Positions 49,562 through 52,144 of a DNA stretch of 64,000 bases are shown in pieces; position 1 is the stretch's first letter, and every line of letters begins with the position of its first letter. The translations under genes and the position numbers were made by a program. The DNA lies in NCBI RefSeq assembly GCF_000026545.1, contig NC_011601.1; one strand, 5' to 3'. Below the pieces are notes generated by a model. That model did no database searches and was not told the origin of the DNA. It saw only the letters and a list, made by a program, of their open reading frames with translations. The stretch is from Escherichia coli O127:H6 str. E2348/69 (lineage in GTDB: Bacteria; Pseudomonadota; Gammaproteobacteria; Enterobacterales; Enterobacteriaceae).

Positions 49562-49945
49562 TTATTCATAGCGTCTGCAACGTGCGGGACGAGGTCGGGT
49601 GTACCATGCAATGCCGCCTAACAAGGCACCAACCAGGGCCATAAACAGAAATCCGACCAATGCTCCTAACCACTTCCCCGCGGTAGATCCTAAATCACTT
49701 TCAAATCCCGACACGGGGGCATCGGGGATCCGGCTCATCACCCAGATGTATCGCGCCATTGCCCAGACGAAATAGCCACACCATGTATAGAAAGCCCACA
49801 AAGCCAATTTGCCGCCAGGACTGCGAGAGAGTCTCTCTTCCATCTTTGTCGAACCGTATTCCATTTTGAGATAACCCGGAAAATTCAGACTTAGAACTAT
49901 TATGTGATAAAAATCACATTTTTCCACATTGGATGAGCCAGTCAA
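49562..49945 (-). CDS. yedR: Inner-membrane protein YedR (start codon uncertain)
   Basis: Track ORF MTGSSNVEKCDFYHIIVLSLNFPGYLKMEYGSTKMEERL...; two predicted TM helices; true start may be an internal Met. Confidence 0.55.
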   Translation of the reverse strand: MTGSSNVEKCDFYHIIVLSLNFPGYLKMEYGSTKMEERLSRSPGGKLALWAFYTWCGYFVWAMARYIWVMSRIPDAPVSGFESDLGSTAGKWLGALVGFLFMALVGALLGGIAWYTRPRPARCRRYE

Positions 49946-50092
49946 GACTCAATCATTTTTTGAACAAATAGATAAATTTTGCGCAACGGCGGTGAATACA
50001 GGAAAACTCGATTTGAACGATTTTATTTATCTTTGATTTCGGCTTTATTAATTCATTCAATCAATATATTGGTACTGATTACAATTATACCT

Positions 50093-50182
50093 TTTTATTT
50101 TTCTGTGTCATCATGCCTCCGTTATTAGCCTTTTATCGTCTTGTTTATATTTTTTTTGGCCGGCATGATGCCGGCTTTTTTT
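50093..50182 (+). ncRNA. rseX: Candidate RseX sRNA (boundaries approximate)
   Basis: Intrinsic terminator ggccggcatgatgccggc + T7 at 50158-50182 in the yedR-yedS spacer; upstream CCUCC-containing stretch (catcatgcctcc). RseX is reported between yedR and yedS; placement from memory. Confidence 0.35.
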
Positions 50183-50492
50183 ATGCCTTCATTAATGTGC
50201 GCGAGATCACGCCAGCCGTTTAGCGCAACAATCATTGATACTCCCTATCTTCTCAATCAACTCATAACATATTGATATACATCCATAATATTCATGAATA
50301 TTTATATTCAGAATTCATAACTATGAATTATATTAAACAGATTAGAAACATTATGAAATCTTTTAAATACATTTGTTACATGTAATCTTTAAAATAAAAT
50401 GAACTTCATAGAATAGTATCCAAATGTGCTTTTTTTGGATAACAGCACTTATTGATATATTCATGAAGATTATAATCACAAGGGAATACATA

Positions 50493-51551
50493 ATGAAAAG
50501 AAAAGTTCTGGCAATGCTGGTCCCGGCGTTATTAGTTGCTGGCGCAGCAAATGCGGCTGAAATTTATAATAAAAATGGCAATAAAGTTGAGCTATACGGC
50601 AAGATGGTTGGTGAGCGCATTCTGACCGACCGTGAAAGTGGTGAAAAAGGCGATAATTCTCAAGATACCTCTTATGCCCGTGTAGGCGTGAAAGGTGAAA
50701 CTCAGATCAACCCTGAACTGACTGGTTACGGTCAGTTTGAACTAGACCTGGAAGCATCAAACAGACACAACCCTGACCAAACTCGTTTGGCATATGCTGG
50801 TTTGAGTTACAAAGATTTTGGTTCATTCGACTACGGTCGTAATGTCGGTGTCGCGTATGATGCAGAAGCATTTACTGATATGTTTGTTGAGTGGGGCGGT
50901 GACTCATGGGCTGGTACTGACCTGTTCATGACCAACCGTACCAACGGTGTTGCAACCTATCGTAACACAGATTTCTTTGGCATGGTTGAAGGTCTAAATT
51001 TTGCTCTGCAATATCAGGGTAAAAATGAAGGTACAGGCAACTACAAAGCAAATGGCGATGGCCATGGTTTATCTGCAACTTACACTATTGACGGTTTCTC
51101 ATTTGCTGGTGCTTATGCAAACTCTGACCGTACTGATTGGCAGTCTGGTGATGGTAAAGGCGAAAGAGCCGAAGTTTGGGCGTTGTCAACAAAATATGAC
51201 GCTAACAATGTCTATGCTGCTGTAATGTACGGTGAATCTCACAACATGAATTCCGACGACGGTGATGTTGTGAACAAAACACAAAACTTCGAAGCTGTTC
51301 TGCAATATCAGTTCGACTTTGGTCTGCGTCCATCCATCGGTTACTCCTATTCTAAAGCACTGGACGTAGCAGGTTACAAAGATTCTGATCGTCTGAACTA
51401 TATTGAAATCGGTACCTGGTATTACTTCAATAAGAATATGAACGTATATACCGCTTATCAGATCAACCTGCTTGATAAGAGTGATTATGTTCTCGCTCAT
51501 GGACAGAACACCGACGACCAACTGGCAGTTGGTATCGTCTACCAGTTCTAA
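50493..51551 (+). CDS. yedS: OmpC/OmpF-family general porin YedS, apparently intact (352 aa)
   Basis: Track ORF trimmed to MKRKVLAMLVPALLVAGAANA signal peptide; mature AEIYNKNGNKVELYGK...; C-terminal ...GIVYQF with terminal Phe. Confidence 0.85.
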   Translation: MKRKVLAMLVPALLVAGAANAAEIYNKNGNKVELYGKMVGERILTDRESGEKGDNSQDTSYARVGVKGETQINPELTGYGQFELDLEASNRHNPDQTRLAYAGLSYKDFGSFDYGRNVGVAYDAEAFTDMFVEWGGDSWAGTDLFMTNRTNGVATYRNTDFFGMVEGLNFALQYQGKNEGTGNYKANGDGHGLSATYTIDGFSFAGAYANSDRTDWQSGDGKGERAEVWALSTKYDANNVYAAVMYGESHNMNSDDGDVVNKTQNFEAVLQYQFDFGLRPSIGYSYSKALDVAGYKDSDRLNYIEIGTWYYFNKNMNVYTAYQINLLDKSDYVLAHGQNTDDQLAVGIVYQF

Positions 51552-51593
51552 TCAGCCAACGCGCCGCGGCGTGTTACTGTAAAACTTAACACC

Positions 51594-51633
51594 AGCCTGA
51601 GTTCGTCCCTCATCGAACTCAGGCTTTTTTATT
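51594..51633 (+). terminator. Rho-independent terminator of yedS
   Basis: cctgagttcg…cgaactcagg stem followed by ctttttt. Confidence 0.7.
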
Positions 51634-52144
51634 GGCATTTCATCTCCATCTGCGGCACACGCAATTGCCAAAGCATATCGATACAGCCCCTTACCCTGCC
51701 CCTCCTGGCACAATAACATCAACCAGCGACTCTTCAAGCCAACACCCAAATGCATTTCTTTATAAATTTAATCTGTAACAAAACCGCTTCCCATATAGAA
51801 ATATTTGCAAAAATAGTGCATGAAAAAAGCTTTTTCCCTACCAATCCGGGATATAAATATTCATCAGTACCACAACATTCCACAGTACTAAATCTCTCCC
51901 CATCGCCCCCAAACCTCTGATAATGGTCTAAAATCATTGAGGCCACTTGCGATGACGTTACTCAATAAGGAAAGTTTGGCGTGAATAATATTCAACACCA
52001 GTGCAGCATCATCATTACATACTTATGCCCGCCAACTACCGCTTTCGATATATTGACTCAATTTTTCAGCCTGGTTAAAAATAGCGACCAGCTCAGTCGC
52101 AAATATAGTGACTACCCTAACTAAGCAACAATAAGGAATACACT

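Follow-up and report, generated by a model that had tools for sequence, protein, structure and literature searches.

In Escherichia coli K-12, the locus between drpB (yedR) and hchA holds the small RNA (sRNA) gene rseX and the porin pseudogene yedS. RseX is an Hfq-binding sRNA whose overproduction leads to repression of ompA and ompC (PMC7648144, PMC8313858); its sigma-70 promoter is backed by 5' rapid amplification of cDNA ends, and rseX is silenced by H-NS/StpA (PMC8313858). The name OmpS1, that of a Salmonella porin (gene ompS), is also applied to yedS (PMC2731931, databases). Salmonella ompS1 is silenced by H-NS/StpA and induced by LeuO (PMC4264507). It depends on OmpR, and in S. Typhi it has two upstream copies of TGTWACAW, the OmpR motif from chromatin immunoprecipitation sequencing (ChIP-seq; PMC3586657). 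RybB destabilises the Salmonella ompS mRNA (PMC1804206; PMC3495738), and yedS (ompS1) of E. coli is under sigma-E-dependent repression (PMC2731931). Passages of two papers (PMC4048246, PMC11267920) credit Warner et al. 2013 with a role of YedS in permeability and carbapenem entry. RseX, the yedS/ompS1 locus, the K-12 pseudogene and the porin fold are thus already known. Here, we analyzed this locus in a stretch of 64,000 nt (the window) from E. coli O127:H6 str. E2348/69 (contig NC_011601.1), and we compared its porin gene, the upstream region and RseX with the same site in other E. coli strains and in other genera.

The window is a 100% match to the chromosome of E2348/69, an enteropathogenic E. 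coli, and at this locus RefSeq gives the order vsr-dcm-yedJ-drpB on the minus strand and porin, hchA, hprS-hprR on the plus strand. An earlier note on this DNA, made from the sequence alone, had described a porin open reading frame (ORF), a terminator and an AT-rich region, and all of these elements lie at the positions that it gave (Table 1). In the annotations of both E2348/69 and the K-12 derivative MGY, the porin stands between drpB (yedR)/rseX and hchA, divergent from drpB-yedJ-dcm; we searched for the flanking proteins by tblastn in all loci to establish the position. We conclude that the region is the drpB(yedR)-rseX-yedS-hchA locus with two independent plus-strand units, rseX and an intact porin gene. 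As judged from its sequence, the E2348/69 porin is of another class than K-12 yedS, with only the mature part exchanged and a frame that is common to the classes. The product would be a classical 16-stranded trimeric general porin of the OmpF/OmpK35-like class, exported by a standard signal peptide. We consider this explanation as a whole, including the regulatory model given below, to be very probable.

The porin gene is complete, as the earlier note had claimed: its ORF has zero internal stops, and it is identical to the RefSeq coding sequence WP_000824393.1, annotated "porin". Residues 1 to 21 (50493-50555) form a Sec signal peptide, the N-terminus reads MKRKVLAMLVPALLVAGAANA/AEIYNK, which has the same form as the OmpC/OmpF cleavage region, and the mature porin of 331 aa ends in VYQF, with the C-terminal aromatic residue Phe. 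Assignment to the "OmpC family" stood at the level of Pfam PF00267 Porin_1 (367 bits, gathering score 23.7, match over all 337 profile positions) and failed at the level of individual porins. The protein missed the NCBIfam cut-offs for OmpC (NF007841, 385.6 vs 484), OmpF (NF007446, 409.3 vs 583) and PhoE (NF007544, 407.3 vs 599), and therefore it is none of the three. Among Protein Data Bank (PDB) chains, all matched over their full length, OmpK35 scored best (442 bits), followed by E. coli PhoE and OmpF (~365 bits) and OmpC (~308 bits).

These full-length matches to OmpC, OmpF and PhoE, and a strand prediction as the earlier note had proposed, agree with a porin fold. An AlphaFold2 model built on 50 homologues is a beta-barrel with strands throughout and loop 3 inside the pore, as expected of a 16-stranded porin (predicted local distance difference test score 77.8, predicted template modelling score 0.75); segment 115-152 is partly helical, and residues 140-149 of loop 3 are modelled at low confidence. 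By Foldseek, the best match was OmpK35 5o77 (template modelling score 0.86/0.90), with OmpK35 and OmpF matches together at 0.81-0.90. In the constriction zone, K37, R63, R98, D129 and R149 are invariant among the 50 homologues, and E133 is at least 90% conserved. These residues align with K16, R42, R82, D113, R132 and E117 of OmpF, respectively. OmpK35 of Klebsiella pneumoniae (PDB 5o77, 9hn1), the nearest solved structure, shares the loop-3 motif VEWGGD and the pore-lining K/R/D/E residues; at ~58% identity it is a paralogue, not an orthologue. OmpK35 is the Klebsiella counterpart of OmpF, with its gene at another locus, next to asnS. The E2348/69 porin class is without a characterised member, within a well-known family.

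At the same position, MGY, which derives from K-12 MG1655, has a pseudogene of 1193 nt with the annotation "porin OmpC; frameshifted; internal stop", as expected from the claim that K-12 yedS is a pseudogene. E2348/69 and K-12 are 95-100% identical in rseX, in the intergenic region, in the 5' untranslated region (UTR) and in codons 1-23. At 50563, identity falls from ~100% to ~65%, with several in-frame indels; it returns abruptly at GTCTACCAGTTCTAA and remains high through the terminator. What the K-12 pseudogene and the intact alleles named YedS or outer membrane protein S1 (~395 aa) have in common with E2348/69 is the locus and, at 95-100% DNA identity, the promoter region and 5' UTR, the signal peptide, the final five codons and the terminator; the mature protein is only 57-60% identical to K-12-type alleles. 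The E2348/69 porin has 352 aa and loop-3 motif VEWGGD, K-12-type proteins have 387-397 aa and PEFGGD, and loops L4, L5 and L7 of the E2348/69 porin are 11-14 residues shorter. The names differ as well: the Prokaryotic Genome Annotation Pipeline calls the K-12 type "porin OmpC" and the E2348 type just "porin", and database entries called "yedS" or "outer membrane protein S1" are of the long PEFGGD class. With this identity, saturated synonymous divergence (dS) and another loop-3 motif and length, the E2348/69 gene is not of one lineage with the alleles named YedS/OmpS1. The description "intact yedS" is thus right in that a complete porin occupies the yedS locus and wrong if taken to mean the intact form of the K-12 gene.

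We took representatives of further alleles from other megablast identity bands. The proteins at the same site have 352, 357, 371, 387 and 395 aa and are 96, 69, 68, 59 and 60% identical to that of E2348/69, respectively; the signal peptide is identical in all. Between classes, dS ranges from 1.5 to saturated/infinite in the mature part. Codons 1-22 have a dS of 0, and the flanking genes drpB, yedJ and hchA have values of 0.02-0.37. Among strains with different porin classes (compared with loci L003, L006 and L008), drpB dS is 0.28-0.37 and hchA dS is 0.02-0.10; the raised value of drpB could stem from hitch-hiking with old porin alleles. Divergence extends beyond the surface loops, with predicted strands 59-74% identical between classes and loops 46-50%. 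The E2348 type has the shortest L4 to L7 of the classes.

We counted alleles in 5426 complete E. coli genomes as places covering at least 80% of a mature-part query. The K-12/L008 type was found in 1660 genomes, the JNE23/Esc6 type in 1356, the E2348 type in 1142 (~21%) and the L006 type in 366, i.e., four deep allele classes at frequencies of 7-31%. The E2348 type itself comprises two sub-lineages (at least 99% and ~96.6% identity). Pseudogene copies occur in K-12, in O157:H7 and in one IS30-flanked case; in strain Res13-Lact-PER12-33-A (L005, 2859-3702), a porin pseudogene is followed by a truncated transposase and IS30 in the place of hchA. A literature search of incomplete coverage found no paper on allele classes at the yedS locus, which does not by itself prove novelty. 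The genome paper of enteroaggregative E. coli 042 from 2010 mentions an "additional phylogenetically distinct porin" without assigned function (PMC2808357). This porin, Ec042-2121, probably lies at the yedS locus, which its gene number fits.

Table 1. Features of the drpB-rseX-porin-hchA locus of E2348/69, in positions of the window, with the basis of each assignment.
Feature	Position	Strand	Basis
drpB	49562-49843	-	RefSeq annotation, ORF list
Putative RseX -10, TACAAT	50080-50085	+	read from sequence; 7 nt upstream of Rfam match start
rseX, Hfq-binding sRNA RseX, 91 nt	50092-50182	+	Rfam RF01401
RseX intrinsic terminator, GGCCGGC-ATGAT-GCCGGC + T7	50158-50182	+	terminator scan; Rfam consensus terminator helix
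CRP-like site TAATGTGCGCGAGATCACGCCA, core TGTGC-N6-TCACG	50193-50214	.	homology to K-12 site by alignment
AT-rich regulatory region and porin 5' UTR, 21-27% GC	50230-50492	+	composition profile
Three tandem 20-bp OmpR-like boxes, GAATTATATTAAACAGATTA, GAAACATTATGAAATCTTTT, AAATACATTTGTTACATGTA	50325-50384	+	cross-genus alignment, ompC likeness
Predicted -10, TAGTAT	50414-50419	+	cross-genus conservation, spacing to hairpin
Predicted mRNA 5'-end hairpin, GUGCU...AGCAC in E. coli	50426-50448	+	per-sequence folding, pair covariation
ATTCA block, near-invariant, within second TTCATGAA copy	50459-50463	+	cross-genus alignment
Shine-Dalgarno AAGGG, 8 nt before ATG	50480-50484	+	AAGGGAATAYATAATG invariant in 54 loci
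Porin coding sequence, 352 aa	50493-51551	+	ORF list; RefSeq WP_000824393.1
Predicted RybB seed pairing site AAAAGAAAAGUUCUGGCA, codons 2-7	50496-50513	+	duplex energy vs shuffles
Allele-specific cassette	50563-51536	+	alignment with K-12
Porin intrinsic terminator	51594-51631	+	terminator scan
hchA	starts 52145	+	RefSeq annotation, ORF list

Outside Escherichia, the nearest proteins are porins of the Klebsiella oxytoca group, at 68-69% identity. In K. oxytoca, dcm-yedJ-drpB is divergent from the porin, as in E. coli. No hchA adjoins the K. oxytoca porin on its 3' side, where we observed tRNA genes, a gene for a Peptidase_M90 protein and one for a LysR-family regulator (L010, 5289-5375 and 6367-6439). 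Synteny across genera is confined to the upstream side of the locus. We scanned species-representative genomes with the conserved pattern of ribosome-binding site and start, which yielded 54 loci in Escherichia, Citrobacter, Enterobacter, Klebsiella, Raoultella, Leclercia, Lelliottia, Trabulsiella, Pluralibacter, Silvania, Yokenella and Huaxiibacter. In nearly all of those with enough upstream sequence, yedJ stands directly upstream, alone or together with drpB. The proteins form three superclasses that differ in loop-3 motif and length: VEWGGD (351-371 aa), PEFGGD (365-397 aa) and PVFGGD (380-395 aa). These superclasses cut across genera, with more than one in each of Citrobacter, Enterobacter, Klebsiella and Escherichia, and all three in E. 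coli. The K. pneumoniae porin at the locus was considered as OmpK37 and rejected; at 532 bits against OmpK37 it is a paralogue. Two contigs of ~2 kb binned as Collinsella sp. (L041, L042), a metagenome-assembled genome of an actinobacterium, carry enterobacterial yedS-locus porin genes, one of them 99% identical to an E. coli allele with hchA adjoining. They are almost certainly bin contamination.

The sharp divergence boundaries raise the question of whether the E2348-type gene is a recent horizontal import into the yedS site rather than an old E. coli lineage. Saturated dS against the other E. coli classes would fit an import, as would the grouping of classes with alleles of other genera instead of by species and the GC content of the coding region, which at 43-47% is slightly below that of the neighbours. 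However, no close donor was found among 5.8 billion proteins and 100,044 species representatives: the K. oxytoca-group porins are the nearest, and none of the scanned loci outside Escherichia has a porin more than 68% identical to the E2348 subclass. In addition, the type is common and split into two sub-lineages in E. coli, and it is also present, at 98% identity, in the representative genome of another Escherichia species cluster of the GTDB collection (L020). All four classes are at intermediate frequency, which fits long-maintained polymorphism with occasional exchange better. Given the lack of a close donor, we prefer allele lineages that are old and have been maintained, with exchange now and then, to a single recent import, which we regard as unlikely.

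Old lineages of this kind have a precedent in Neisseria porB, where mutually exclusive, deeply divergent porin alleles (PorB1a/PorB1b; class 2/class 3) occupy one locus in one species. The likeness is an analogy of function only, with no relation by descent at this level, and it is limited further in that porB encodes the major, essential porin whereas the E2348/69 porin is a supposed quiescent extra. The yedJ/drpB-adjacent site may be a porin cassette locus throughout the Enterobacteriaceae. Its conserved frame would consist of an OmpR-type promoter, a 5' hairpin, the ribosome-binding site, a RybB site, the signal peptide and the C-terminal beta-signal, and its three ancient superclasses (OmpF/OmpK35-like VEWGGD, OmpC-like PEFGGD, and PVFGGD) would be exchangeable by homologous recombination. 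Pressure from phages, colicins or antibodies on a normally silent "reserve" porin would keep the classes. The cassette pattern itself was observed here; long-term balancing selection is a reading that we propose tentatively, leaning somewhat against it on present evidence.

The upstream DNA belongs to the shared frame: the AT-rich region is 95-100% identical to K-12 although the coding sequence has diverged. The AT-richness claimed for it is real, with 27% GC at 50190-50492, 200-nt windows down to 21.5% and flanks of ~50%. The claim that this region is laden with repeats that could bind a regulator fared less well. The named motif TTCAT/ATGAA is present in 9 copies against 2.6 expected from dinucleotide shuffles (P ~0.001 for the pre-named motif), the 8-mer palindrome TTCATGAA in 2 copies against 0.03, and a 15-nt near-repeat, ATATTCATGAA(T/G)ATT, occurs at 50288 and 50457 with 93% identity. 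Yet in 39% of the shuffles the commonest 5-mer reaches at least 9 copies, and therefore "some repeated 5-mer" is unremarkable in DNA this AT-rich. The copies also sit in unlike places, namely at 50291 in the distal zone, in the first and second OmpR-like boxes, in the promoter spacer and in the 5' UTR. Outside Escherichia, only some of them are conserved, among them the 5' UTR copy, whose ATTCA core is near-invariant across genera. On balance, we think it slightly the better guess that the TTCAT-type repeats (TTCATGAA/ATGAAT) are a by-product of AT-rich composition and that they form no array for a single regulator.

The distal zone also contains a CRP-like site, matching 8 of the 10 CRP core positions. 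Its K-12 counterpart, ggTGTGAtcaggcGCACAtta at 2033766, matches 9 of 10 and is an in-vitro site assigned to yedS in a Footprint-seq preprint (PMC12871828), whose table holds CRP-type TGTGA-N6-TCACA sites. At ~220 bp upstream of the predicted porin start, the E2348/69 site is too distant for the usual action on the predicted promoter.

For 37 loci in more than 12 genera, we aligned the 330 nt that precede the ATG. The distal zone, 50190 to ~50320, including TTCATGAAT at 50291, is conserved within Escherichia only, whereas the proximal zone is conserved across genera irrespective of the porin class downstream. In order, the proximal zone consists of the boxes, ATAGTAT, the hairpin, ATTCA, ATTAT, AAGGGAATAYATA and the ATG. 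The suggestion of regulator sites upstream thus keeps its plausibility as a regulatory region, and conservation marks the OmpR-like boxes, ATAGTAT and the hairpin, not the distal TTCATGAAT.

The best-conserved upstream blocks are boxes 2 and 3, GAAACATTATGAAATCTTTT and AAATACATTTGTTACATGTA (50345-50384), preceded by a weaker block with ATGAATTAT at ~-101 to -82; relative to the predicted start, the three boxes span ~-101 to -42. Box 3 equals ompC box C1 (TTTACATTTTGAAACATCTA) but for one missing T (a 1-nt gap), and it contains TGTTACAT, which fits TGTWACAW. Counted from the predicted start, the two strong boxes occupy -81 to -42, the place of OmpR sites C2 and C3 in ompC. We verified the ompC promoter sequence in E. 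coli genomes; the boundaries of its OmpR boxes follow published footprints. The motif alone is not significant in the window, and it is by their conservation that the boxes are candidate OmpR sites.

Downstream of the boxes, ATAGTAT at 50413-50419 is invariant in the 37-locus alignment, and TAGTAT lies 68-84 nt upstream of the ATG in 49 of 49 distinct upstream sequences. A hairpin follows. When each sequence was folded singly and stems were compared by position, a hairpin opening with the dinucleotide G-U was predicted in 46 of the 49 sequences and other hairpins in the remaining 3. Its pairs covary: stem position 3 is GC in 13, CG in 5, AU in 27 and GU in 1, and stem position 4 is CG in 13, AU in 19, GC in 8, GU in 5 and UA in 1. 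No structure came out of RNAalifold when the 5' UTRs were simply aligned by MAFFT. The covariation indicates an RNA element, which would place the transcription start between ATAGTAT and the hairpin and make TAGTAT the -10; we infer a start at ~50424-50426 and a 5' UTR of ~67 nt. Two other assignments were rejected. With TATAAT at 50471-50476 as the -10, the start would fall inside the Shine-Dalgarno sequence, and TAGTATC, which could be read as an OmpR box (cf. ompC box C3), was given up in favor of the -10 since the covarying hairpin begins 7-9 nt after it.

The translation-initiation region carries complementarity to the RybB seed. RybB nt 1-16 (5' seed GCCACUGCUUUUCUUU; sequence checked in E. 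coli genomes and Rfam RF00110) pair at 50496-50513 with -17.2 kcal/mol, compared with -8.8 +/- 1.8 for shuffled seeds, none of 1000 being as good. This predicted site agrees with the RybB-dependent decay of ompS mRNA and with sigma-E repression of yedS. By the same seed-restricted comparison (P = 0.17-0.64), two RseX segments paired with the porin mRNA no better than shuffles, nor did the seeds of MicF, MicC and MicA, whose sequences were unverified, so that the latter result is a weak negative. MicF is reported to control YedS (Warner 2013). Full-length sRNA-mRNA duplexes were discarded, being long and no better than shuffles.

RseX itself was identified where the earlier note had placed it. 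The match to Rfam RF01401 scores 89.4 bits (gathering score 50, E = 6e-12, model positions 1-94, untruncated), and the terminator that had been proposed to mark RseX is its 3' end, with a stem at 50158-50176 of 8 pairs (6 G-C), a loop of 3 and seven T at 50176-50182. The gene is at the same place in 5 of the 5 other E. coli allele classes tested (93.8-99 bits), and nhmmer found it in other Escherichia species; it is present in every Escherichia class and species examined. In Citrobacter amalonaticus (L031), a clear but weaker match (33.6 bits, E = 1e-9) lies in the same relative place, at positions 396-483 within the 800 nt that precede the porin ATG. Matches in other Citrobacter, Leclercia and Trabulsiella (L033, L025, L049, L029, L051) are marginal, none was detected in Klebsiella or Enterobacter, and a terminator-like hairpin lies ~300 nt upstream of the porin in several genera. 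RseX may be older and more diverged than Rfam detection shows.

Like RseX of K-12 (RF01401; Douchin et al. 2006), that of E2348/69 lies between drpB (yedR) and yedS, with the same length and terminator. TACAAT is the putative RseX -10; the consensus scan left it unreported because its -35 is weak. The 5' stem-loop differs by few substitutions, CATCATGCC in E2348/69 vs CATGATGCT in K-12, by which one pair of the Rfam consensus helix is lost and a 9-nt complementarity to the terminator gained. As a result, CAUCAUGCC (50109-50117) is perfectly complementary to GGCAUGAUG (50162-50170) in the terminator, and the minimum-energy fold pairs these two segments instead of forming the Rfam 5' hairpin and the terminator. 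K-12 has CAUGAUGCU, with one mismatch and one wobble against the terminator segment, and Esc6 (L004) carries the E2348 variant. On the minus strand at 50084-50111, inside the 5' end of rseX, we observed a near-consensus sigma-70 promoter, ATGACA-16-TATAAT (11 of 12 positions), which was the top match of the promoter scan. Its -10 (50089-50084) overlaps the putative RseX -10, giving a back-to-back divergent layout in which the minus-strand promoter faces drpB; the published drpB promoter is much nearer drpB (PMC7648144).

The rseX and porin genes are on the same strand and 310 nt apart, and together they could be one regulatory unit in which the porin, having no promoter of its own, is transcribed by read-through from the RseX promoter. 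The alternative fold of E2348/69 RseX, which displaces the terminator hairpin, would favor such read-through. Against it, the RseX terminator is strong (6 G-C pairs, seven U), and the proximal promoter and 5' UTR are conserved in Klebsiella, Enterobacter and most other genera, where rseX is not detectable. The RseX promoter is itself silenced (PMC8313858), and the seed tests above gave no sign of RseX pairing with the porin mRNA. We therefore judge read-through as the main source of porin mRNA to be very improbable and retain two independent units.

For the porin unit, we propose the following working model. The E2348/69 porin would be quiescent, like Salmonella OmpS1, with its AT-rich upstream DNA silenced by H-NS/StpA; this silencing is inferred by analogy, and the OmpR dependence, TGTWACAW sites and RybB targeting of OmpS1 lead us to expect the same regulation here. 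Transcription would start near 50426, from an activator-dependent promoter with -10 TAGTAT and no good -35, served by the tandem OmpR-type boxes at ~-100 to -40. The porin mRNA would begin with a stabilising hairpin, and under envelope stress RybB would pair with codons 2-7 and shut the porin off. Once expressed, the porin would be an added general diffusion channel with surface loops unlike those of OmpC/OmpF.

Several points weigh against this model. The porin start is a predicted one and not mapped, the -35 of the TAGTAT promoter is poor, and a simple promoter scan chose TTGTTA-16-TAAAAT at 50373-50400 instead of TAGTAT. Neither the 5' UTR nor the hairpin of E. coli is more stable than shuffled sequence. 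Enrichment of TGTWACAW in the window is not significant, and box 3 is 1 nt shorter than ompC box C1. Quiescence of the E2348-type porin is drawn from analogy only, and the equation of yedS with ompS1 rests on database names, PMC2731931 and the gene order of Salmonella. Salmonella was not recovered by the DNA scan for the ribosome-binding site and start; a protein search with a K-12-type allele returned Escherichia and Shigella proteins only, without a link to Salmonella. By database names, moreover, OmpS1 is of the long OmpC-like class, whereas the E2348/69 porin is of the short class. Finally, the carbapenem entry reported for YedS cannot be assumed for the E2348 type. Where the porin promoter lies, which regulators act on it and whether the gene is expressed are thus predictions; what the parts are, how the alleles are built and what is conserved were observed here.

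Around the two units, we made some further observations. The porin terminator has a stem at 51594-51625 with 12 pairs (7 G-C), followed by a T-run, and is identical in K-12. Between it and hchA lies a 510-bp non-coding gap (51634-52144) with 37-45% GC and a strongly negative GC skew, of which the first 67 aligned bases are nearly identical to K-12. Just upstream of drpB, at 49900-49921, is a perfect CRP core, TGTGA-TAAAAA-TCACA, whose K-12 counterpart taTGTGAtaaaagTCACAttt is listed as an in-vitro site "(yedR)" in the Footprint-seq table with CRP-type sites (PMC12871828). The cell-division gene drpB is a pseudogene by annotation in two strains, with a frameshift in one of serotype O157:H7 (L007, 318-598) and an internal stop in strain 52148 (L009, 317-598).

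The allele-class structure of the locus is the one result of moderate interest, and its consequences are practical. Across E. coli strains, "yedS" denotes at least four proteins, not one, in classes that differ about as much as OmpF does from OmpC, which matters for annotation and for work on antibiotic permeability. Results obtained with one allele are consequently not transferable to strains of the E2348/69 type, about one-fifth of sequenced E. coli. From the conserved frame of promoter and 5' UTR follow testable predictions on how a quiescent porin may be switched, by OmpR, H-NS, RybB and the 5' hairpin.

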